Of a stretch of 32,000 nt of DNA, positions 10,671 to 27,451 are shown one piece after another. The notes below the pieces were generated by a model that saw only the letters and a list, made by a program, of their open reading frames with translations, was not told the origin of the DNA and did no database searches. The DNA is from Candidatus Saccharimonadota bacterium (lineage in GTDB: Bacteria > Bacteroidota > Bacteroidia > Cytophagales > Amoebophilaceae), in the NCBI RefSeq assembly GCF_964030745.1, contig NZ_OZ034918.1, positions 510,001-542,000 of the forward strand, given 5' to 3'. Position 1 is the first letter of the stretch. Every line of letters starts with the position of its first letter. The translations under genes and the position numbers were made by a program.

Positions 10671-12128
10671 ATGCTATCCTTATATATACCACTTTTGATG
10701 GTGGCAGCTTTTTTATTATTTGAGTGGATTTTTGTATCCTGCTTGTCTATTATCCCCACTACATTTCGGGACTATAGTGTAAGCACCAAGCAGCATGACA
10801 CCCCTCTTTTGGTTTACATTTTACTATTTACTTTTTTTGAAAGTGGATTAATAGTACGTACCATACAAGAAGTGCATCACCTTGGTCTTCCTTGGATCAT
10901 TTTCGAATTTTTGAGTGGTTGCATACCCTTTTGGATTGTCAGTTGTTTGGCATTACGTATGGGCCCCTTTATGCATAACTTGTCTATGTCAGAGACAATA
11001 GGGAATGTCTATGGTAGATATCCGATGATTATTACATCATTATCCAATATTTGCTGCGCTACTGTGGTGGTCGCTATTCAAATGAATATCATCTCTTTAG
11101 CAATCAATATCTGTTTAGATTGGGTTGATCCAAGAATAGTGACTTTTTTGACCATTTTGCTCCTTGGTTGCTATACAGTCATTGGGCGGATGCGTGTGTT
11201 TAGCTTAACAAATATTGGGCAACTGGTTGCCTTTTTAATTACGCCCTTAATTTTGTCTTGTTGGATGTCTATGCGCATGGACGAGCCGCTCTTAGAACTA
11301 CTGGGTAGGTTATTTATGAGTCAAGCAAAAAATCATTTGAACAACCTATCCCATTCAGACTTTAATGCACCGGCCATCTTATCATTATTTTTGGCCAATC
11401 AAGTTTCCTGTATACAACCCTTGATGATGCAAAAAGTATATATGTCTTCTGATCACTTTCAAGCGCGCAGTGTCTTCTTCTATACTGGTATTTTTGGCGC
11501 TATTATGAAGTTTTTTATTTTACTATTTTCTTTGATTCTCCTTTCAGCTGCTCCAACGTTATCTTTAACAGAAATTTGGAGCTATATAGTAACCGGCATG
11601 CCACCCGCTTTAAAAGGGCTTGTCGCCATTAGCCTGCTTTCTGCAGCGATGTCTGTAGCGGACACTTATTTAAATACGCCTGCTGTCCTGTTTAGTCATG
11701 ATATAGTAGAAGGTATGATGGATCAAAAATGGATACCCTATCGTTATCAGATTCGATTGGCTAAACTAATAGCTTTGTTGATGGGGCTGGTTGCTATGTT
11801 ACTCAACACCCACTGCAGTGATTTAATGGAGTTATGCAAATTACATTTGGATTGTTTTATACCTATAGCAATCGCCCCTTTTATTTTAGCTGTTTTGGGT
11901 TTTCGTGGTACCTCCCGAACTGCTTTGATGGGTATGGCCGCAGGCATATTGGCTATTTGGAGCTGGAATAAATGGGTAGAGCCTATTACACACATCAATG
12001 GTGCTTTCCCTAGTATGGTAGCCAATTGTCTAGCTATGATGGTGGCCCATTATTTTTTTCCACGACCGAAGAAGGAGCTAAAGCAGACAAAACAATCAAA
12101 TGAAAACCATCAACCAAAGTTATATTAG
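10671..12128 (+). CDS. sodium/solute symporter (SSS/SLC5) family paralogue, stand-alone, with degenerate signature motifs
   Basis: 485 aa and polytopic. Collinear with residues 1-470 of the 13015..16608 product, for example LALRMGPFMHNLSMSETIGNVYGRYP vs LALRMGPFLKHLSMAETIGSIYGKYP, and IAPFILAVLGFRGTSRTALMGMA vs IAPFILAVFGFRGSARTALIGMA. Confidence 0.75.
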   Translation: MLSLYIPLLMVAAFLLFEWIFVSCLSIIPTTFRDYSVSTKQHDTPLLVYILLFTFFESGLIVRTIQEVHHLGLPWIIFEFLSGCIPFWIVSCLALRMGPFMHNLSMSETIGNVYGRYPMIITSLSNICCATVVVAIQMNIISLAINICLDWVDPRIVTFLTILLLGCYTVIGRMRVFSLTNIGQLVAFLITPLILSCWMSMRMDEPLLELLGRLFMSQAKNHLNNLSHSDFNAPAILSLFLANQVSCIQPLMMQKVYMSSDHFQARSVFFYTGIFGAIMKFFILLFSLILLSAAPTLSLTEIWSYIVTGMPPALKGLVAISLLSAAMSVADTYLNTPAVLFSHDIVEGMMDQKWIPYRYQIRLAKLIALLMGLVAMLLNTHCSDLMELCKLHLDCFIPIAIAPFILAVLGFRGTSRTALMGMAAGILAIWSWNKWVEPITHINGAFPSMVANCLAMMVAHYFFPRPKKELKQTKQSNENHQPKLY

Positions 12129-12176: not shown

Positions 12177-12785
12177 ATGGAAGATGATTTTAAAAAAATA
12201 TTGCAAGGTTACAAAGCATTTAGAAATAAATATGTTGATGCTGATCCATCTATTATGCATAGTTTACATCGCAATGGACAACAGCCTAAAATTATGGTGA
12301 TCGCCTGTTGTGATGCTAGAGTAGATCCCGCTTTAATATTACAATGTGATCCGGGAGATTTATTTGTGGTGCGTAATGTAGCCAATATTGTACCTCCTTA
12401 TGAGCAAGACAAAGGACATCATGGCACAAGTGCTGCTTTAGAGTTTGGTATTTGTCTCCTTGACATAGCTCATTTAATTATACTGGGCCATAGCCAGTGT
12501 GGAGGAATAAAGGCTTTATTAGAAAATGGAGATGTAAAGCAAGATGATTTCATTACCAATTGGGTTTCTTTAATCAAAACGCCTAATTTTAAAAACCATC
12601 AAGCAGATGATTATGCTAAATTGTCCTTAGCGCAATCCTATGAAAACTGCATCACCTTTCCCTGGATTAAAGCAAGAACACAAACCGGAAAACTTACAAT
12701 TCATTTATGGTTCTTTGATATTCAAACAGGACAAATTTATACTTACACTAAGGATACCCAATCCTATCAAACACTATTGGTTTGA
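12177..12785 (+). CDS. beta-class carbonic anhydrase
   Basis: 202 aa. Zinc ligand motifs CCDARVDP and GHSQCGG at canonical spacing, and the length is typical of Can/CynT-type beta-CA. Confidence 0.92.
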   Translation: MEDDFKKILQGYKAFRNKYVDADPSIMHSLHRNGQQPKIMVIACCDARVDPALILQCDPGDLFVVRNVANIVPPYEQDKGHHGTSAALEFGICLLDIAHLIILGHSQCGGIKALLENGDVKQDDFITNWVSLIKTPNFKNHQADDYAKLSLAQSYENCITFPWIKARTQTGKLTIHLWFFDIQTGQIYTYTKDTQSYQTLLV

Positions 12786-13014: not shown

Positions 13015-16000
13015 ATGACATGCTTTAACATACCACTGATTATAGTAGGGGCTTTTTTAGTATTAACCTTAGTAGTAGGCATCTATTTTAGTAGAAGAAA
13101 AACCACCTTTCGAGAACATGCTGTTGGGAATAAAGAGTTTGCTACAGCTACTCTAGTAGCCACGGTATTGGCTACTGCTTATAGTGGAGGAGGATTACTA
13201 CGTACTGTAGAATGTGTGTATAACCTTGGCCTGTGGTGGATAGTCATTACTTTTTTAACTTGCTTTGATGCATATCTTATTGGGAAATTAGCCTTACGAA
13301 TGGGGCCATTTTTGAAGCATCTCTCTATGGCAGAAACGATAGGTTCCATTTATGGTAAATATCCAAGGATTATGGTCGCCCTGGTTAGCGTGGTTGGCTC
13401 TGTAATTGCTATTACTATGCAGATTAGTGCAATGTCCAAGGCTATTACTATGTGTATAGATACAGCTGACGATCGTATGGCAGCTATCATCTCTACTTTA
13501 GTGCTTATTTTTTATTCCGCCTTTGGAGGTGTGCGTGCGGTTACCTTCACTGATGTATTACAGTTTATAACCTTTGCAATCATTATTCCGCTACTTGCTT
13601 GGTTTATGTTTATTAAAACTGGAAAGTCAACTGTAGAAATCATTTCATTTTTACATAACCATACTACTAAATTTCAATTTAGTAGCTTGTTTCAGTGTAA
13701 TAAGAAGCTTATGAGCATGTTGTCATTGATTCTATCTTTTTTAATAGCTCGCATGTACCCATCTATTATACAACGCGTCTACATGGCTTCCGGTCCACTC
13801 CAAGCTCAAAAAGTTTTTACTTATGTGACTATTTGTAGTGCCATTATATGGAGCTTTATACTCCTAGTAGGCGTATTGGCTTTTGTAGGAGCACCTAACT
13901 TAGTAGGTAAAGAGATCTGGATTTATATAGTGAATGGTGTGCCGCCTATCTTTAAATCGTTTCTGGCTATCAGCTTATTGGCTATGGCTATGTCTACAGC
14001 TGACTCTAATTTAAACTCCTCTGCGGTGATGATTAGCCATGACATCCTAAAGCATATAGGTAGAGGCAAAAAACTTGCCCAGGTTAACCAACTTAAGTTG
14101 GCCAAATGGGCCACATTAGTGATAGGGTTATTGGCCATGGTATTGACTTTTTACTGTAATGATTTATTGATATTGATGTACTGGGCCCTGAATTGCTATG
14201 TTCCGATAGTGATTGCTCCTTTTATCCTAGCTGTTTTTGGATTTCGAGGTAGTGCCCGTACCGCCTTAATCGGTATGGCTGTAGGTGTGCTGACGATTTT
14301 ATCCTGGAATAAGTGGGTCGAACCGTCTACATCCATGGATGGTTCCTTTATTGCTATGTTAGCCAATGCTTTAGCCATGATGGCTGCCCATTATTTATTG
14401 AAACAACCGAAAAATACTGGCTGGACTCGGCCTCAGCAGGATCATATGGTTCATCAAATGCAACAAGAAAATGCCCGTAAGCAAGCAGAACGAAAAGAAA
14501 CAATGAAAAACGCTTGGACCAATAAAAAAGATACCCTAGCTAAGTTACAACCCAAGCATGCCACGTTAACTTGCGTGGGATTCTATATTATCATCAGTAA
14601 TTTACTGGCTTATTTTATAGCCTCTATTACCGAGCATAGTGGTTGGCTTATCGCGCAGCTCTTAGTAGGCATTTGTTTTTTAGGGTATAGTACCTTTATA
14701 TCAGAAAAAACAAAACCGATTCAGGATTGGGTTATTGGCCTATTTTGGCTAATTGGCTTATCTTTCTGCTTTCCCATTAACGTGCTATGGCATTGGTGGC
14801 ATGGCACCAATCTATTCTTAACCCTAGGCTTATCTTTGGCCCATTTGGCAGTTGCCTTGTTGACGCTGCCACTATATCTGGGTGTGGGATTTTTAATGGT
14901 TACCCTATTCATGATGATCTACCTTAGTGCTATTTATTGTACCAAACCACTGGTGCTGGTATTGTCACCAGCAGGTGTGGTATTGCTACTGTTGCTCTGT
15001 TTGGGATTGGGCTTACTTATCTTTACCATTTTTGTTTACCTTAAAGCCAAGAATAATCGTTACGCCAACCAAGTAACCTACTTAAGGCGTAGAGAAAAAA
15101 TGCACACATCCCGTAAGTTCAAGGAATCGCTCTATAATTCAGCTATACTTGCTACTGCTGGCACCCAGCCTAACGGCAACGGTTCTATTTTAGCGAAAGT
15201 AGTAGGAAAAGTAGAGGAATCCATCTCCTTTTTAGATGACAACATGCCCCTTTATAAAAAGGATTTTCAAAGTATTATCAATAAGTTTTATGATTGGGTA
15301 GCCTATTTCAATAAAAAAGAAAAGGCCAAAGACCATGCATTGTTGCAGCCTACTAAAATTACCTTAGATAAACTGATTCGAAAAGTAGAGGTTGCGTTGT
15401 CTCAAGAGGTTACACACCGACCTAGGCTGTTTCTAGAGTGCATCAAGAAGGCTGGTGATCCGGTTGTTTCCTATATAGTATGTGATATCCATCAAGTAGT
15501 CTATTCCTTGGTTAAGGCTGTTTTACAAGTTGGTGGTAGGTTGGATGGAACCAACGCACCACTTATTCGTATACAGCTCCATGCCACCTCTTTGCGGTTT
15601 AAACAGGTTGATCCTTTTAATAATCGCCCTCCTTCTTGCATCTCGTTCGAAGCTATTGCGCTAGTGATAAGCGACCTTAGTATGCCTCCTGAAACACTTC
15701 CAACCATCAAAGCAGTCTACGATGATGTGGTAGATGGTATGGGCGTACAAAGCAAACAAGAAATGCCACCATCGTTAGACCTTCAGCGGGAAACAATAGC
15801 CAGTATTGTGGCTTCCCATTACGGTTATATGGAATATGGGGCTGATGCTAAGGAAAAAGCTATATTATTGGTATTGCCTACTGATGTCACAGCCATTCGT
15901 GATAAAATGATGATCAAACTACCTATAGATTACTTAACCTCCGAAACGCCTATCACCCCTAAGGAGCAAGCCGATTCAATGATGATCCTGATGCAGTTCC

Positions 16001-16608
16001 ATGACTATGTCTGTAAGTCTTCGCATCGATCAGATCCTATTGATGTAGCCACAATTTCTGGTTTGCTTTTATTATTGCGGAAACATTTTCGCTTTAGACG
16101 ACATAGCTCTGGCCAATTGTTTTATGTACGAGCGGTAGGCATTGCCGCATTGGTGGTAGAATGGTTTTTTCACTCCCCTAAAGTGATTTATGCTGCTTTA
16201 CTTTATGGATTGGTTCGTCGTACCTGTTTGCCTCTTTCTTACATCAAGGAACATTATAACTTGGGCGTTTATGCCTTTGTATTGAATGTAGTGGGTATAG
16301 ACAAACGGGAAAAGCTAGACCATCCTTCTTTGCTCTATGTTAAGAATCGTTTGAAGGAAGCGCTTAAGGAAGATCATGTACAGCTTTCCGTGCTCTTTAT
16401 AAAACTGGCTGAACGGCTCTATGATTTGCGCCATGCAGCAGGTTATATGTGCCTAACAGAGGTTAAGTATATGGCGCAAGAAACCTTAACCATAGATGTG
16501 CAGATAGCTCATACACACTTAGGCCCAGAGATAGGGATGGCATTAGAACAAGCAGCCAAACAGGCATTAGAAATTTGTAAAAGTAAGGAAGAAAAGGTGG
16601 TGAACTAA
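13015..16608 (+). CDS. multidomain membrane protein: SSS/SLC5 domain + extra TM block + degenerate histidine-kinase-like core + degenerate SpoT/Rel HD-like domain
   Basis: 1197-aa uninterrupted ORF. Residues 1-~470 form the SSS domain (GGVRAVTFTDVLQ signature). Residues ~470-515 form a charged helical linker and ~515-679 about six TM helices. Residues ~780-958 follow HATPase_c-like spacing and ~1022-1185 align with the Rel/SpoT hydrolase domain. See findings. Confidence 0.85.
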   Translation: MTCFNIPLIIVGAFLVLTLVVGIYFSRRKTTFREHAVGNKEFATATLVATVLATAYSGGGLLRTVECVYNLGLWWIVITFLTCFDAYLIGKLALRMGPFLKHLSMAETIGSIYGKYPRIMVALVSVVGSVIAITMQISAMSKAITMCIDTADDRMAAIISTLVLIFYSAFGGVRAVTFTDVLQFITFAIIIPLLAWFMFIKTGKSTVEIISFLHNHTTKFQFSSLFQCNKKLMSMLSLILSFLIARMYPSIIQRVYMASGPLQAQKVFTYVTICSAIIWSFILLVGVLAFVGAPNLVGKEIWIYIVNGVPPIFKSFLAISLLAMAMSTADSNLNSSAVMISHDILKHIGRGKKLAQVNQLKLAKWATLVIGLLAMVLTFYCNDLLILMYWALNCYVPIVIAPFILAVFGFRGSARTALIGMAVGVLTILSWNKWVEPSTSMDGSFIAMLANALAMMAAHYLLKQPKNTGWTRPQQDHMVHQMQQENARKQAERKETMKNAWTNKKDTLAKLQPKHATLTCVGFYIIISNLLAYFIASITEHSGWLIAQLLVGICFLGYSTFISEKTKPIQDWVIGLFWLIGLSFCFPINVLWHWWHGTNLFLTLGLSLAHLAVALLTLPLYLGVGFLMVTLFMMIYLSAIYCTKPLVLVLSPAGVVLLLLLCLGLGLLIFTIFVYLKAKNNRYANQVTYLRRREKMHTSRKFKESLYNSAILATAGTQPNGNGSILAKVVGKVEESISFLDDNMPLYKKDFQSIINKFYDWVAYFNKKEKAKDHALLQPTKITLDKLIRKVEVALSQEVTHRPRLFLECIKKAGDPVVSYIVCDIHQVVYSLVKAVLQVGGRLDGTNAPLIRIQLHATSLRFKQVDPFNNRPPSCISFEAIALVISDLSMPPETLPTIKAVYDDVVDGMGVQSKQEMPPSLDLQRETIASIVASHYGYMEYGADAKEKAILLVLPTDVTAIRDKMMIKLPIDYLTSETPITPKEQADSMMILMQFHDYVCKSSHRSDPIDVATISGLLLLLRKHFRFRRHSSGQLFYVRAVGIAALVVEWFFHSPKVIYAALLYGLVRRTCLPLSYIKEHYNLGVYAFVLNVVGIDKREKLDHPSLLYVKNRLKEALKEDHVQLSVLFIKLAERLYDLRHAAGYMCLTEVKYMAQETLTIDVQIAHTHLGPEIGMALEQAAKQALEICKSKEEKVVN

Positions 16609-16640: not shown

Positions 16641-16814
16641 CCGCCTTATCTCCTTCGATAAAAAGTCTGGCCCGATAGTAAATAGCTGAATCGATACATT
16701 TTTCAGCGGGAAAATCGTGAACTCAGCCCGCAAGCGGGCTTCAAACAGACGATTTTCTAATCCGCTGAAAAAATATATCGCTCAGGTGTTAGTGTTTTAC
16801 TAGAGCGCCATTTT
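16641..16814. repeat. long imperfect palindromic intergenic element (left arm, central hairpin, part of right arm), interrupted by the IS
   Basis: Central hairpin 16691..16780: cgatacatttttcagcgg...gcccgc aa gcgggc...ccgctgaaaaaatatatcg. The outer arm tctccttcgataaaaa (16649..16664) matches the reverse complement of 18123..18138 at 15/16 positions. Confidence 0.7.
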
Positions 16815-18119
16815 GAGGCCGTTGCAATAGACCTTTACGATTTGCCATAAAAAGTATCTTTTTATTTTTTAGAAGAAGGTAAAAAAAGGTTAAATTCTAT
16901 TGATTTTTTTAGGTATTGATGCTTAAAACTTTTAATAATATTGTGTATGTCGCTCAAGCAAACTAAGCAATTAAGTTTTTCAGATATTTCCGCCAATAAG
17001 CGTAAGTGCAAACACACTTTCTTTGATCAAATCAACAAGCTAGTTAATTGGTCAGTAGTAGAAAAAGCACTCCGATTACATTATCCTAAAGGTTTACGTT
17101 TATCAGGCAAACCGGCCTATAGTCCTCTGCTTCTATTCAAAATGCTATTGCTACAGACGTGGTATGGCTTGAGCGACTATGCAGTCGAAGAAGAAGTGAA
17201 TGATCGTATCACTTTTAGCAGATTTTGTGGTATTTCGATGGATAGTTCTGTTCCAGATCATAGTGTACTAAGTAGATTTAGAACTACCCTTACAGAGAAG
17301 AATGCTTTAGAAAAGTTATTGCATATCATTAATAATCAGCTATCTGATCATGGTGTATTGGTTCAAAACGGTTCAGCAGCTGTAGATGCTTCTATTACCC
17401 CTACCCCTAGACGCCCTAAAGGTAAAAAAAGCTACGATCTGCATGAAGATGGAACCATAACCACAGCTGAAAGTTATCAAAAAGGAGTAGATCCAGAAGC
17501 AAGTTGGATAAAAAAAGGCCATCATCTCTACTATGGCTATAAGCGGCATGTTCTTGTGGAAAGCAAAGAGGGGTTGGTGCTAGCCGTAGGTACCACAAAA
17601 GCATCTAGTCATGATAGTGGGCATTTACAGGTATTATTGGATAAAGTAAGGCTAAAATCAGGCAGCAGACTCTATGCAGATAAAGGCTATAGCGGGTCGC
17701 CCAACGAAAATTTACTAAAGAAAAAGAAGTTAAAATCAGCTATTCAGAAAAAAGGGGCTAGAAACAATCCTTTATCACCCACTGCTAAACGGTTTAATAA
17801 ATTAGTATCTAAAACGCGCTATAAAGTAGAACGGGTATTTGGAAGTATTAAAAGTTGGTTCCGTAGCTCAGGAGCCAGATATATAGGCCTTGCTAAAACC
17901 CATACGCAACATGTTATGGAGGCAATAGCCTATAACTTATATAGGTCCCCAAACATCATATTAAGAGGTATCTAGGGGAATGGTGTGTCCAAAATAGATT
18001 GAAAATGACTAAAAAATCAGTAAATAAATAGTTTTATACCACTATAACATCAAATATGGCAAGGAAATAACCCTGGAAGATTAATCAAAATTATACCTTC
18101 AACCTATCACAACGGCCTC
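16815..18119 (+). mobile_element. IS5-family insertion sequence (about 1.3 kb), apparently intact
   Basis: Terminal inverted repeats GAGGCCGTTGCAATAG (16815-) and the reverse complement of 18119- (GAGGCCGTTGTGATAG) match at 14/16. Flanked by ATTTT on both sides (16810..16814 and 18120..18124). Single DDE transposase ORF inside. Confidence 0.85.
16947..17975 (+). CDS. IS5-family DDE transposase (DUF772 N-terminal + DDE_Tnp_1)
   Basis: 342 aa from ATG 16947. N-terminal LLFKMLLLQTWYGLSDYAVEEEVNDRITFSRFCGI is typical of IS5-group transposases. Candidate DDE residues lie in AAVDASITPTP, LYADKGYSG and RYKVERVFGSIK. Confidence 0.9.
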   Translation: MSLKQTKQLSFSDISANKRKCKHTFFDQINKLVNWSVVEKALRLHYPKGLRLSGKPAYSPLLLFKMLLLQTWYGLSDYAVEEEVNDRITFSRFCGISMDSSVPDHSVLSRFRTTLTEKNALEKLLHIINNQLSDHGVLVQNGSAAVDASITPTPRRPKGKKSYDLHEDGTITTAESYQKGVDPEASWIKKGHHLYYGYKRHVLVESKEGLVLAVGTTKASSHDSGHLQVLLDKVRLKSGSRLYADKGYSGSPNENLLKKKKLKSAIQKKGARNNPLSPTAKRFNKLVSKTRYKVERVFGSIKSWFRSSGARYIGLAKTHTQHVMEAIAYNLYRSPNIILRGI

Positions 18120-18439: not shown

Positions 18440-19951
18440 TTATTGTTTTGTAAGGCCAATAGACTTTTTCCATCTAATGGTCAAGATATAAAAGGTGGCT
18501 AAAATGATTATATGTAGGAAAATATAGGCCCATCCTGCTCCTAAAAACGCTAGTTTAGCCCGCCATAAGGAAACTTTATCCAATGCTAAAAAGGTAGCCA
18601 AAAGCAATAAAAAACCATGCTTATGATAAGGTATTGGATAACATTTTTGACCAATATAGTATCCCAGTAACCCCATAGCAACTGCACCACTCATAGAGGC
18701 ATATACACACCCCCAATGGCCCAGTGTCGGTATCAATAGTAATGCCGTACACCAAATCACCAAAGTACCCAATGCACTGATCCAAGTGTTATATCGTGGA
18801 TGGGCACTCAATTTAAAAGCAGCACTCAAGTTGTAATAAACACCTAAAAGGATATGCGCAAATGCTAAATAGGGCACAGTGTCAATGGTATGACGATAAT
18901 CTGCATTTGGAATCAGGATCTTAGCCACCCAGTTTATATTTACACTAAAAAGCAATAGACAGCAGCAGGATGCTAATATAAATAGGTGCATCGTTTGACT
19001 ATATAATTTTAGTGCCTCCCTGCGTGCTGAGTTGGCAAAAAAGAATGGTTCTGCAGCATGTTTAAAGGCTTGAATCCCTAGTGTAATACATAAAGTCAGC
19101 TTACAAGAAGTGCCAAAGTTACCTAATATTGCTTCCTTTGTATGGGTGACATAAAAATTACTAGGAACCAATTTTCGAAACAACAAGAGCGGAAGTGTTT
19201 CATTCATTCTAAAAAATAGCGTTGTTAAAAAAGACGTGGCTGCATAACCTCCTATCGTTTGAATGGTACGGTTGTTCCAAATCAAATGAAATCCCTTAAA
19301 ATTTGGCAATAGAAGGGTTAAAGCGGTTAGGCTAGACAACAAATTAGCTATAAAAACGGCATCTAATCCATTGAAACTTACCTTTATGTTCAAATAACTA
19401 TCCAATAAATATTCTATACATCTCAAACATAGAGGACAGCAAAGCAAAAGAAAAGAAAAGAAAAGACTAGCAAAAGCTTGTAAACATTTCACCAACAGCA
19501 ACCACAAGGTTTTTTTTGCTACACGTAAACGGGCATAGGGAATCATCAGTAGCGTATCAAGCATAAGAATACCAGTCATATAATAGAAATAACGTATATG
19601 GGCTAGGTGGTTGGTGATTCTTGCAATTTGTGGCGTATATATAATCAGTAGGGTTGATAAAATAATACTAGTAACCAACAATATAGTTACAATTATATTA
19701 AAGGTATATTGTTTGCCTAATATATGTACATACCTAAAATAGGTCATATCCATGGCCAAGTCATAGATGACATGACCCAAAGCAATATAACTTCCATAGA
19801 ATTCTATAACGATACTGTATGCACTGGGTGTCAGCACATTGGTTTGAAGTAGTAAAGCAAAATAGGCACATCCGCGTACAATAATGTTGCTTATGCTATA
19901 TATAATGGTTTCTTTACCAAGTGTTTTAACTGTGTTGTGCATCGTAGCCAT
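18440..19951 (-). CDS. MOP-superfamily oligosaccharide/polysaccharide flippase (Wzx-like)
   Basis: 503 aa with about 12-14 TM segments. The N-terminus GKETIIYSISNIIVRGCAYFALLLQTNVLTPSAYSIVIEFYGSYIAL...MDMTYFRY resembles Bacteroidota 'polysaccharide biosynthesis / flippase family' proteins. The last gene of an apparent adk-obg-flippase co-directional unit. Confidence 0.65.
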   Translation of the reverse strand: MATMHNTVKTLGKETIIYSISNIIVRGCAYFALLLQTNVLTPSAYSIVIEFYGSYIALGHVIYDLAMDMTYFRYVHILGKQYTFNIIVTILLVTSIILSTLLIIYTPQIARITNHLAHIRYFYYMTGILMLDTLLMIPYARLRVAKKTLWLLLVKCLQAFASLFFSFLLLCCPLCLRCIEYLLDSYLNIKVSFNGLDAVFIANLLSSLTALTLLLPNFKGFHLIWNNRTIQTIGGYAATSFLTTLFFRMNETLPLLLFRKLVPSNFYVTHTKEAILGNFGTSCKLTLCITLGIQAFKHAAEPFFFANSARREALKLYSQTMHLFILASCCCLLLFSVNINWVAKILIPNADYRHTIDTVPYLAFAHILLGVYYNLSAAFKLSAHPRYNTWISALGTLVIWCTALLLIPTLGHWGCVYASMSGAVAMGLLGYYIGQKCYPIPYHKHGFLLLLATFLALDKVSLWRAKLAFLGAGWAYIFLHIIILATFYILTIRWKKSIGLTKQ

Positions 19952-25470: not shown

Positions 25471-25576
25471 AAGCCATTAGAAATAGGTTTCAGAAGAGGG
25501 CTAATATAGTTAAAAAACTAGACTACACTTGATTTATTTAAGAAATATTGGTATCGTTGTATGATTTCTATTGCTA

Positions 25577-25650
25577 GGGGGATTAGCTCAGTTGGCTAGA
25601 GCGTCTCGATGGCATCGAGAAGGCCGGGGGTTCGAGTCCCCCATTCTCCA
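25577..25650 (+). tRNA. tRNA-Ala (anticodon GGC), CCA not encoded
   Basis: Hand-folded cloverleaf. Acceptor gggggat/attctcc with the G3:U70 alanine identity pair. D arm gctc-agttggcta-gagc. Anticodon arm tctcg-atGGCat-cgaga. T arm ggggg-ttcgagt-ccccc. Discriminator A, 74 nt. Confidence 0.9.
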
Positions 25651-25658
25651 CTGGACTT

Positions 25659-25697
25659 CTTTTGAGGGGTGCTTATACAGGCGTAACACCTCAAAAG
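25659..25697 (+). terminator. stem-loop immediately downstream of tRNA-Ala (termination or processing structure)
   Basis: cttttgaggggt / acacctcaaaag pair at 11 of 12 positions with a 15-nt loop. There is no downstream T-run, so an intrinsic-terminator call is tentative. Confidence 0.35.
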
Positions 25698-25729
25698 CAG
25701 CCTACCAGATAAAGCTTATACCTTTAACG

Positions 25730-27451
25730 ATGTTTAAACGGATTCCTACCTTTTCGCAGCTGTTTCATTACAGCTATCTATTACTTATTTCTATATTTTC
25801 CTGCGTTGCAGTACAGGAGCCAGAAGGCGGTCCTCCTGATGAGACACCACCTAAGCTCGTTCGCTCGGTTCCAGAAAACAGTGCATTAAACTTTAAGGGT
25901 AAAACCATTCGGTTGACATTCAATAAAGATATTGCTTTTTCAAATAACAACTTGGTGATCATGCCCAAATTGGATCAACCAAAAGGCAAACAACCCTACA
26001 GCTATACTGTAAATGGAAAAACGCTACAACTTAAGCTACATGTTCCGCTAAAAGAAGAGACGACCTATGCCATCCATTTTAATAACGCAGTTAAAGATAC
26101 CCATGAAGGCACTAAGGCAACAGGTGCAGCATTAACTTTTAGTACAGGTTCTTTTATAGATCCCATTACCATTAAGGGAACCACAAAAGCATTACTAACC
26201 AATAAGCCAGTAGGCAATGTTAGTGTTTACCTCTATAGTGCAACACGAGACCCTAAAGAATGGCAAGAAAAAGGCACACCCGATTATTATACTACAGCTG
26301 ATCAAGATGGTAATTTTACCATAGGTTGCATACGCTTAGGCAAGTATTACATTCGAGCTACCACTGGGCAAAACAATACCTATAAGATTGATTATGAAAA
26401 GGATAAATATGGGTTTTTTAAGAACCCTATTGATTTAAGCGATTCCCGAGAAGATGTTGTACTCCCGCTTGTGGCAGCTGACGTACGTGATTTAAAATTA
26501 TTACGCGGCACACCCCAAAAAGGTTTTTTTGAAATCATCTTTAACAAAGCGATAACCAATTACCAACTGATACCACTGCAAACGGTAGGGATAAAGGGCA
26601 AGCCACAGCTCTATAGTTGCGCTTTAGAACAATCACCTAACGTAGTCACTATTTACAATACTTTTGGCCTTCTCGAGGGAGATACCTTTAAGATTCAGTT
26701 AAAAGCCCAGGATGCTTTACATAGGCCATTAGAAGAAAATATATCTATTAGCTTCAAAGAAGGAAAAGCAGAAACTGCCAAAACAAGCCTAAGCTATAGG
26801 CTAGCATCACGTCCCCTACCTTCGATAGTGGCTGATTTTTCAGAATCGATCTCATTTAACAAGCCCATTAAAACATTTAACGAAGCGTTAATCTATTTTG
26901 AGTGTAAAAACCAACAGAAAATTGCTCTAAAAGAAGACGAATGGTCCTGGAACGGAGATCGAACCAAACTGACCATACGCAAACATTTCATGCCAGAAGA
27001 GATTAGCCAGTTTCTTCTAAAAGAGCAAGAAAGAGACGATAAAAGTAAAATTATAGATCAGATGGTTACCTTACAAATAGAACCGGGTGCTTGTACTGCC
27101 TTTGATCAATCGACCCATAAAAAGATCAGCCAAACTTATTTACTTAGAAAAAAAGAAGCAACGGGGACCATTTCAGGAAGCATAACAACCACAACGCCCT
27201 ATTTCATTATTGAGCTACTGAATCAAAAAGATGTATGCGTAGATGCTATTCGGAATAAAAAAAGTTATCAATTCAAAATGGTTCCACCTGGCTCCTATAG
27301 AATGCGCATATTGGTGCTCAATGAAGGGGAAGAGGAGTGGTCACCTGGAGATATACTTAAAAACATTGAGCCCAACCCAGTAATCTTTTACGAAAAAGAA
27401 ATCAATATGGTAGAAAACTGGGATGTAACCGGTATCGACTTTAAATTTTAA
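25730..27451 (+). CDS. Ig-like (Big_5/SbsA-type) domain lipoprotein with carboxypeptidase-regulatory-like domain
   Basis: The ATG at 25730 gives MFKRIPTFSQLFHYSYLLLISIFSC, a lipoprotein signal with Cys. It is followed by DETPPKLVRSVPENSALNFKGKTIRLTFNKDI (Big_5-like) and DQDGNFTIGCIRLGKYYIRA (CarboxypepD_reg-like). The upstream part of the tracked ORF overlaps the tRNA. Confidence 0.65.
   Translation: MFKRIPTFSQLFHYSYLLLISIFSCVAVQEPEGGPPDETPPKLVRSVPENSALNFKGKTIRLTFNKDIAFSNNNLVIMPKLDQPKGKQPYSYTVNGKTLQLKLHVPLKEETTYAIHFNNAVKDTHEGTKATGAALTFSTGSFIDPITIKGTTKALLTNKPVGNVSVYLYSATRDPKEWQEKGTPDYYTTADQDGNFTIGCIRLGKYYIRATTGQNNTYKIDYEKDKYGFFKNPIDLSDSREDVVLPLVAADVRDLKLLRGTPQKGFFEIIFNKAITNYQLIPLQTVGIKGKPQLYSCALEQSPNVVTIYNTFGLLEGDTFKIQLKAQDALHRPLEENISISFKEGKAETAKTSLSYRLASRPLPSIVADFSESISFNKPIKTFNEALIYFECKNQQKIALKEDEWSWNGDRTKLTIRKHFMPEEISQFLLKEQERDDKSKIIDQMVTLQIEPGACTAFDQSTHKKISQTYLLRKKEATGTISGSITTTTPYFIIELLNQKDVCVDAIRNKKSYQFKMVPPGSYRMRILVLNEGEEEWSPGDILKNIEPNPVIFYEKEINMVENWDVTGIDFKF

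Follow-up and report, generated by a model that had tools for sequence, protein, structure and literature searches.

A Rel/SpoT-type hydrolase domain without its catalytic residues, retained at the C-terminus of a symporter/pseudo-kinase membrane protein of the Amoebophilaceae

The window analysed here is a stretch of 32,000 nucleotides (positions 510,001 to 542,000 of contig NZ_OZ034918.1, assembly GCF_964030745.1) from a bacterium of the family Amoebophilaceae, and its subject is one gene encoding a membrane protein whose last domain resembles the (p)ppGpp hydrolase domain of Rel/SpoT proteins (Table 1). A first-pass annotation, made from the letters of the sequence, had marked the segment 16078-16560 as such a hydrolase domain with its catalytic signatures substituted. 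In the list of open reading frames (ORFs), this segment lies within one unbroken plus-strand ORF (13015-16608) of 1197 codons. The domain call was right; what had been missed is the protein context, for the segment is the last domain of a protein that also comprises a sodium:solute symporter, a block of six transmembrane helices (6TM) and a pseudo-histidine kinase. The ORF ends 31 codons beyond nucleotide (nt) 16560 and the gene after it encodes a transposase, as expected from the annotation's statement that no synthetase domain follows; Pfam and NCBIfam searches of the whole protein found no synthetase (PF04607), TGS or ACT/RRM domain after the HD domain. Whereas a small alarmone hydrolase is a stand-alone HD protein of ~180-200 amino acids (aa), the domain in the window is the C-terminus of a membrane protein of 1197 aa. 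Full-length relatives range from 1165 to 1237 aa, and the window copy is of normal family length. No second family member is present anywhere in the window.

Table 1. Features of the symporter/pseudo-kinase/pseudo-hydrolase gene, in positions of the window
Feature	Position	Strand	Residues and basis
Whole gene	13015..16608	+	Intact ORF including stop codon, 1197 aa; multidomain inner-membrane protein (symporter, 6TM block, pseudo-histidine kinase, pseudo-(p)ppGpp hydrolase)
Sodium:solute symporter (SSS/SLC5) domain	13123..14286	+	aa 37-424; Pfam PF00474
Charged helical linker QMQQENARKQAERKETMKNAW...	14455..14559	+	Joins symporter to second membrane block; modelled helix 2-30
Second membrane block, six hydrophobic helices	14572..15033	+	aa 520-673; hydropathy scan and model
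Degenerate histidine-kinase module	15178..15894	+	Helical hairpin like a dimerization and histidine phosphotransfer (DHp) domain, ~aa 722-769; alpha/beta domain like a catalytic and ATP-binding (CA) domain, ~aa 780-960; Foldseek and family profiles
HD_4 pseudo-hydrolase domain of Rel/SpoT homologue (RSH) type	16075..16605	+	aa 1021-1197; sequence and fold matches
First signature block	16102..16131	+	H1030 (Rel R44), F1036 (Y50), R1039 (Rel H53, Mn ligand)
Former HDxxED motif	16204..16221	+	Now Y1064 G1065 L V R1068 R1069
KLAERLYDLRH block	16402..16434	+	K1130 and R1134 kept; E1133 (Rel D144, Mn ligand), Y1136 (H147), D1137 (N148), H1140 (T151)

The C-terminal domain is matched by the Pfam family HD_4 (PF13328) over aa 1021-1166 (profile positions 5-151 of 156), with 30.4 bits in the whole protein and 34.2 bits (E 2.6e-8) when the fragment is searched by itself; the gathering score of the family is 27.2 bits. 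Searched with phmmer against the sequences of the Protein Data Bank (PDB), it matches Rel of Bacillus subtilis (8acu, E 1e-4), RelSeq (1vj7, E 4e-4) and human MESH1 (E 9e-3). The structure predicted by AlphaFold for aa 993-1197 from 39 family sequences has a mean predicted local distance difference test (pLDDT) score of 85.3 and a predicted template modelling (TM) score of 0.83, and displays the all-helical Rel/SpoT hydrolase fold. When this model was compared with the PDB by Foldseek, ranks 1-36 were occupied entirely by Rel, SpoT, RelA, small alarmone hydrolases, Mesh1 or (p)ppApp hydrolase, with query-normalised TM-scores of 0.65-0.73 for the Rel/SpoT matches and best root-mean-square deviations of 3.1-3.6 A. 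The collinearity with the (p)ppGpp hydrolase domain that had been proposed by eye is thus borne out by an HD_4 score above threshold and by a Rel-like predicted fold. The resemblance to the Rel/SpoT hydrolase domain exceeds chance, and both the identity of the domain and its status as a pseudoenzyme are near certain.

All four peptides that the first-pass annotation had aligned with hydrolase motifs are found in the translation of 13015-16608: SGQLFYVRAVGIA (aa 1032-1044, nt 16108-16146), AALLYGLVRRT (aa 1060-1070, nt 16192-16224), IKLAERLYDLRHA (aa 1129-1141, nt 16399-16437) and AQETLTIDVQIAHTHLG (aa 1154-1170, nt 16474-16524). Residues were mapped from HMMER alignments and are given in RelSeq numbering. 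All four Mn2+ ligands are replaced (H53 by R1039, H77 by Y1064, D78 by G1065 and D144 by E1133), and so is the catalytic ED pair (E81 by R1068 and D82 by R1069). The change of the HD dyad to YG had been read from the codons TAT GGA at 16204-16209, which do sit there, and the change of ED to RR is seen as R1068/R1069. The equivalents of the residues that contact base and ribose are also replaced (R44 by H1030, Y50 by F1036, N148 by D1137 and T151 by H1140), as is H147 (by Y1136). K141 (K1130) and the phosphate-contacting R145 (R1134) are retained. Profile and structure alignments did not reveal intact H, HD or ED residues at any other place in the domain.

The consequences of such changes have been studied in Rel of Thermus thermophilus (Rel_Tt), where the guanine base is held by stacking on R43 and by bonds to N150 and T153, the ribose by a bond to Y49 and the phosphates by R147, and where E80, D81 and N150 are catalytic; hydrolysis is abolished by each of the substitutions R43A, Y49F, E80Q, D81N/E, N150A and R147G, and the closed ppGpp-bound state is not reached without Mn2+ (bioRxiv 10.1101/670703). 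Because single substitutions inactivate Rel_Tt and many such residues are replaced in the window domain, the latter carries many independently inactivating changes. Judged from its sequence, the domain has lost most of the canonical substrate-recognition residues along with the chemistry, and we infer that it cannot hydrolyse (p)ppGpp by the HD mechanism.

The same residues bear on the possibility that the dead domain is a (p)ppGpp sensor that binds the alarmone without cleaving it, coupling transport or signalling to the stringent response. The fold is kept, the pocket is highly conserved (see below), K141 and R145 remain in place, the latter corresponding to the phosphate-accommodating R147 of Rel_Tt, and the alarmone probably exists in the family, since the relative Candidatus Amoebophilus asiaticus is listed with one full Rel[HS] (PMC3153485). 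However, the residues responsible for stacking and hydrogen bonding to guanine and ribose (R44, Y50, N148 and T151) are all replaced, the Mn2+ that organises the 3' side is lost, which in Rel_Tt prevents the closed state, and a search that was not exhaustive encountered no synthetase in the Cardinium matches examined. A sensor of this kind is considered unlikely. The first-pass annotation had concluded that the pseudoenzyme was kept for binding or regulation; that it is a retained pseudoenzyme is upheld by the evidence that follows, and (p)ppGpp binding is the weaker half of the claim because R44, Y50, N148 and T151 have been replaced too.

Relatives of the protein are numerous. A word-indexed search with aa 700-1197 returned 68 proteins, many per genome, with best identities of 65-69%, and all matches with a named source were from Cardinium. 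An exhaustive HMMER search of 1.84 billion representatives returned 431 matches. Apart from proteins of the Cardinium type, many of ~1110-1250 aa match the profile end to end and are recognized by Pfam as SSF and HD_4 proteins at 83-106 bits. The site signature of the intact relatives is that of RelSeq at all 16 examined positions, save that Y50 is mostly F, and follows the pattern RKEP[FY]H..HD..ED..KxxDRxHNxxT. Intact relatives with a named source belong to Amoebophilaceae bacterium, Candidatus Amoebophilus sp. 36-38 and Bacteroidota bacterium metagenome-assembled genomes (MAGs); examples are MBX9890476.1, MBX9889935.1, MEM9738141.1, OJW73679.1 and ORFs in two Cardinium loci, L004 and L052. 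These intact paralogues share with the window protein the order of domains, the length, the type of symporter, and a degenerate kinase module with AH[YG]GY and YVLP motifs. In contrast to the window protein, they possess the complete Rel signature (R44 K45 E48 P49 H53 H77 D78 E81 D82 D144 N148 T151), and their HD_4 scores of 83-106 bits compare with 30 bits for the window domain.

In L004 (Cardinium sp. TP) and L052 (Cardinium cBcalN2), the intact paralogue is a minus-strand ORF at the right-hand end of the locus, convergent with a dead-site copy, and contains the motifs LLHDTVEDT/LLHDVVEDT and KLADRLHNLRTL. The neighbouring dead-site copy is of the long form, with a symporter, in L004 and of the short form, without one, in L052; this adjacency of intact and dead copies was not observed at the other loci. 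A search with the intact paralogue, which was not exhaustive, found copies in at least five Cardinium lineages, none with a synthetase domain. The gene neighbourhood of one intact relative (Der and Era GTPases, EamA, rhodanese and NACHT) offers no functional clue.

When the last 520 residues of 43 sequences were compared in a neighbour-joining tree, the dead-site proteins formed a clade split from all proteins with the intact signature, including those of Cardinium, in 100 of 100 bootstraps. The dead-site clade appears to have branched from proteins of identical architecture with a canonical hydrolase signature, and a single loss of catalysis followed by expansion would fit this topology; in the course of the expansion some copies lost the symporter. 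Members of the clade all came, in this analysis, from Amoebophilaceae, namely from Cardinium species and one MAG of the family. Inside the intact group there are further lineages with independently degenerate HD domains (P0119, P0125, P0131, P0163, P0172 and P0202), several of which have R at position 53; four of these six proteins cluster together in the tree. Catalytic loss is, on this sequence evidence, recurrent in proteins of this architecture.

The extent of the expansion was estimated by scanning one genome per GTDB species for dead-site motifs with alignment A1, which by design detects only the dead-site clade. The scan identified 70 loci: 14 in the 1.16-Mb chromosome of the Nabis limbatus Cardinium, 5-12 in each of seven other Cardinium genomes, and one in an Amoebophilaceae MAG. 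A complete Cardinium chromosome of ~1.1-1.4 Mb thus carries 5-14 loci of up to ~3.6 kb each, and draft assemblies are similar. Two subtypes are present, a long form with the symporter, like the window gene, and a short form of ~650-740 aa that starts at the 6TM block. No symporter match was found at 23 loci. Some of these are genuine full-length short forms, such as L042-L056, for which 3 kb of sequence upstream is available, and others are fragments or lie at contig edges. What every form retains is a core of 6TM block, pseudo-kinase and pseudo-HD domain. Some copies are broken: L024, L032, L033 and L036 are frameshifted, and a copy on plasmid p_B of the Dermatophagoides farinae Cardinium (L001, CP101108.1 27192-30732) is split into two coding sequences annotated as 'symporter' and 'HD domain-containing protein'.

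Selection on each domain was estimated by the Nei-Gojobori method with 12 intact Cardinium orthologues taken from the genome loci. The ratio of nonsynonymous to synonymous substitution rates (dN/dS, omega) of the pseudo-HD domain was 0.11-0.17 between the window gene and each Cardinium orthologue and 0.08-0.20 across all listed pairs, whereas it was 0.15-0.34 in the pseudo-kinase region and 0.14-0.58 in the 6TM block; in most of the 36 listed pairs, omega was lower in the HD domain than in either of the other two C-terminal domains. The synonymous divergence (dS) was 0.2 in the closest pair (HD omega 0.20) and ~0.75-1.4 in most others, near enough to saturation that omega is approximate, yet far from 1. 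A value near 1 had been named in the first-pass annotation as the mark of decay; those obtained indicate a domain that is retained and not decaying. That the segment is a decaying pseudogene fragment or a chance similarity, as might be suspected from the frameshifted or split Cardinium copies and from the insertion sequence (IS) transposase directly downstream of the window gene, is very improbable and is refuted by the intact ORF of 1197 codons, the omega of 0.11-0.17, the Pfam score above threshold and the TM-score of ~0.7.

Conservation of the former active site was examined in a dead-site set of 76 sequences selected on positions 53, 77 and 144, at which H53->R, H77->Y and D144->E therefore occur in 76 of 76 by construction. 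At positions that played no part in the selection, R44->H and P49->L are each found in 74 of the 76 sequences, H147->Y in 73, N148->D in all 76 and T151->H in 64, and K141 and R145 are kept at the level of 74-76 of 76. The KLAERLYDLRH block is invariant in alignment A1 of the clade. Positions 78 (G/D/E), 81 (R/V/H/C/I) and 82 (Y/H/R) are variable within the clade. Conservation of at least 95% was observed at 9 of the 16 former active-site positions and at 28 of the 188 other columns (Fisher p 3.8e-4), an enrichment that this p value overstates because positions 53, 77 and 144, which are among the nine, had served to define the set. The pocket, as far as these alignments indicate, is rebuilt and constrained rather than relaxed. 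One dead-site copy (L016, from C. hertigii cEhis1) has His instead of Arg at position 53, in the signature HAQLFHYGRR..., which represents either a reversion or a retained ancestral state.

A pocket conserved in this way may have acquired a new ligand or a new activity, with H1030, R1039, Y1064, E1133, R1134, Y1136, D1137 and H1140 forming a metal-independent site. Five positions that were not used for selection (R44->H, P49->L, K141, R145 and N148->D) are among the most uniform of the set, H147->Y is nearly so, conservation in the pocket exceeds that in the remainder of the domain, and selection is strongest in this domain. On the other hand, catalysis in the HD superfamily requires metal and all four ligands are gone; the variability of positions 78, 81 and 82 within the clade means that the centre of the old site is not fixed; and the occurrence of H53R and D144E also in the non-catalytic domain of RelA suggests a structural rather than a chemical role for these residues. 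A neo-enzyme or new-ligand pocket is accordingly held to be improbable.

Conversely, the domain might be an inert structural tail that is needed for folding, dimer stability or membrane insertion and takes no part in signalling. Pseudo-domains are often retained as scaffolds, the adjoining kinase module is dead throughout the family (see below), and catalysis has been lost several times independently, in the six lineages listed above. However, an inert tail should not be the domain under the strongest constraint, and its former active-site positions should not be more conserved than its surface; the family has, moreover, diversified to 5-14 loci per complete Cardinium chromosome in genomes that are strongly reduced. 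This reading is thought to be quite unlikely.

The remainder of the protein consists of modules that are related to known transporters and sensor kinases. The symporter domain is recognized by PF00474 with 63.3 bits (cut-off 22.8) and by TIGR00813 (E 1.3e-20), and its hydrophobic segments span aa 6-410. The family profile is nearest to the choline transporter CHT1 (8j74, E 4e-41) and also matches SiaT and vSGLT. The MSTADS motif is conserved in the wide family alignment (A2), and the assignment as a putative symporter was made at the level of domain homology and strong conservation. Between the window protein and the copy of Cardinium cBcalN2 at L010, the symporter part (13015-14454), including the SSS domain, is 80.6% identical and the C-terminal 717 aa (14455-16605) only 66%; this contrast may be due either to uneven constraint along the protein or to domain exchange between paralogues.

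A model of aa 481-1197 (pLDDT 72) consists of a charged helix, six transmembrane helices, a long helix, a helical hairpin and an alpha/beta domain, followed by the HD domain; pLDDT is ~87-91 in the linker helix 2-30 and 74-91 in the helices of the 6TM block. Six segments were found in the second membrane block by hydropathy scan as well, and this block is kept in both the long and the symporter-less paralogues. No STAC or PAS match was obtained between the transporter and the kinase module in Pfam searches at E values up to 10. The middle part of the model was matched by Foldseek to ZraS, CckA, HK853 and RetS at E 4e-5 to 1e-3. Pfam searches (HisKA, HATPase_c) and single-sequence PDB searches of this region gave nothing; family profiles match ThkA (3a0r, E 7e-9 and 3.9e-8), ZraS (E 4e-6), AdeS and RetS by sequence. 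In the alignments with ZraS and ThkA there are no conserved counterparts of the phospho-acceptor His, the N-box Asn, or the G1 and G2 boxes (DxGxG, GxGLG), and what survives of the kinase framework is CD..I..LL and AHYGY...YVLP. The kinase module is degenerate across the whole family, not only in the window protein.

The neighbourhood of the gene in the window contains another transporter. On the plus strand upstream, 10671-12128 encodes a stand-alone sodium:solute symporter of 485 aa, 41% identical to the symporter domain of the gene and ~41-46% identical to those of Cardinium members, apparently a transporter related to the family that lacks the C-terminal signalling half. Between it and the gene, a beta-class carbonic anhydrase (12177-12785, plus strand; Pro_CA E 5e-40) is present that is not a conserved neighbour in the Cardinium loci, where one weak match was found. 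Directly downstream, an IS5-type transposase (16941-17975, plus strand; DDE_Tnp_1 and DUF772, TTG start) fits the IS-rich genomes of Amoebophilus and Cardinium. Between gene and transposase, 16692-16780 (plus strand) can form a long nested hairpin, TTTTTCAGCGGGAAAATCGTG ... GCCCGCAAGCGGGC ... CGATTTTC..CCGCTGAAAAA, with a folding energy of -38.1 kcal/mol (z-score -5.9; 0 of 200 shuffles as stable) and without an Rfam match; possible identities are a terminator for both directions, the end of an IS or a small repeat element. Scans for promoters and terminators around the gene gave nothing usefully above the shuffled expectation. A membrane protein encoded farther downstream on the minus strand (18440-19951) shares 76% of 141 aligned residues with the protein next to the copy at L002. 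No match of the window is above 82% identity, even over short segments, and the source is therefore an Amoebophilaceae symbiont near to the genomes searched and not one of them. The presence of MreB in the window is compatible with a Cardinium source, since strain cBtQ1 has mreB. A tRNA gene (25577-25650, plus strand; Rfam RF00005, 63 bits) lies at the start of the listed ORF 25571-27451 (TTG start), so that translation of this ORF, provided that it is a gene at all, must begin further downstream.

The best explanation overall for the retained pseudo-hydrolase, and in our view a fairly probable one, is that it serves a transporter-like sensor as a non-catalytic module for regulation or scaffolding; the corresponding mechanism is moderately likely. 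In the cytoplasm, the dead domain would terminate a dimeric pseudo-kinase stalk anchored in the membrane, and would relay or receive conformational signals between the sensor/transporter part in the membrane and a partner. The invariant polar residues of the pocket (H, R, Y, E, R, Y, D, H) may constitute a side-chain network that holds the fold in place of the metal site, or may accommodate some other small ligand; the presence of an arginine and of a lengthened acidic side chain where two metal ligands used to be suggests that a pair of side chains may fill the site of the metal. Because the short-form copies dispense with the symporter, regulation of the protein's own transporter cannot be the whole output, and a partner would be needed. 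The most plausible partner, speculatively and by analogy, is the intact-hydrolase paralogue, which could be engaged by way of the 6TM/DHp module common to both; in that case the dead copies would adjust the activity of the alarmone hydrolase in response to whatever their membrane parts detect.

Several considerations weigh against this interpretation. Heterodimerisation of dead and intact copies is a speculation by pure analogy with RetS, which acts by binding the paralogous kinase GacS. The intact paralogue is known from Cardinium and from MAGs, and its presence in the window's own genome, like that of a (p)ppGpp synthetase, would have to be presumed. The expansion is partly decaying, with individual copies dispensable. 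The statistics of retention are also affected, by the near saturation of dS in the one case and by the selection of the 76 sequences on pocket positions in the other.

The domain is a second, independent example of an RSH pseudo-hydrolase that has been retained, besides that of RelA, in a different protein context and with the same H53R and D144E substitutions, and comparison with RelA makes the role of the dead HD domain testable. An architecture of symporter, 6TM block, pseudo-kinase and alarmone hydrolase would physically link the uptake or sensing of nutrients to (p)ppGpp turnover. Reduced genomes normally shed regulators, which makes the dead-site clade a candidate for the sensing of host metabolites in symbionts that manipulate arthropod reproduction. 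More broadly, and tentatively enough that we would not expect all of it to hold, these proteins may represent an undescribed class of membrane signalling proteins in which a symporter and a dead kinase stalk control an alarmone-hydrolase domain; the dead offshoot would be among the largest paralogous families in intracellular Amoebophilaceae, and its members might sense a new ligand or act as RetS-like switches by which host metabolites control a single active paralogue. The loss of the hydrolase site is missed by current annotations such as 'HD domain-containing protein', 'Bifunctional (p)ppGpp synthase/hydrolase RelA', 'PutP' and rickSpo[H].

The expansion itself has been noticed in the literature, where the proteins are treated as hydrolases. 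Candidatus Amoebophilus asiaticus was listed by Atkinson et al. (2011) with one Rel[HS] and 14 'rickSpo[H]' small alarmone hydrolases (PMC3153485), and Brown et al. (2018) counted 18 'spoT / sodium glucose cotransporter' homologues in Amoebophilus and 2-7 in Cardinium strains (PMC6232779). These rickSpo[H] and 'spoT' expansions fit the family described here, a circumstantial match that does not prove the identity of the proteins; both studies list them as hydrolases [H] or bifunctional SpoT, and mention neither the loss of catalytic residues nor the pseudo-kinase module. In the literature searched, no description was found of the dead site, the pseudo-kinase module, a pair of intact and dead paralogues, or a fusion of symporter and alarmone hydrolase, and a review of prokaryotic symporters covers symporter-kinase fusions and no HD- or (p)ppGpp-related fusion (PMC7918813).

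Each module of the protein has its counterpart among known systems. Single-domain small alarmone hydrolases and Mesh1 (PDB 5VXA, 6YVC, 7QOC) have the same HD_4 fold, with TM-scores to the target of 0.64-0.73, but are soluble enzymes of ~180 aa with intact metal and ED sites, and the family profile is nearer to long Rel (E 6e-48) than to Mesh1 (E 1e-21). RetS of Pseudomonas (PDB 6DK7/6DK8), one of the best structural matches of the middle domain, is likewise a membrane sensor in which the kinase module is not a normal autokinase; it differs in having a periplasmic sensor and receiver domains and neither symporter nor HD domain, and the likeness of mechanism would be one of analogy. The SLC5/STAC sensor kinases, or 'transceptors' (CbrA, CrbS/MxtR and RpuS; PMC7918813, PMC7096432), resemble the window protein in the fusion of an N-terminal symporter to a cytoplasmic DHp-CA module. 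Unlike proteins of the CbrA/CrbS type, the window protein has no detected STAC or PAS domain, six extra transmembrane helices, and a kinase without phospho-acceptor His and ATP boxes, and its output is an RSH hydrolase-type domain where theirs is phosphotransfer to a response regulator.

The closest parallel for the dead domain is the pseudo-HD domain of gamma-proteobacterial RelA, represented by that of Escherichia coli (PDB 5IQR; PMC8012599), the one RSH pseudo-hydrolase that has been studied well, in which the HD_4 fold is likewise kept, hydrolysis is lost and the domain is retained under selection. The two have the identical substitutions H53->R and D144->E and the motif KLAER, whereas other substitutions differ (HD to FP and ED to DA in RelA, YG and RR in the window protein). 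The dead domain of RelA is a conformational and regulatory switch for the neighbouring domain (PMC8012599); it is N-terminal and regulates the adjacent (p)ppGpp synthetase on the ribosome, whereas that of the window protein is C-terminal, without synthetase, TGS or ACT domains, in the context of a membrane pseudo-kinase and transporter. In a way that is absent from the literature searched, the protein combines two known themes, the pseudo-hydrolase of the RelA type and the symporter-kinase transceptor.

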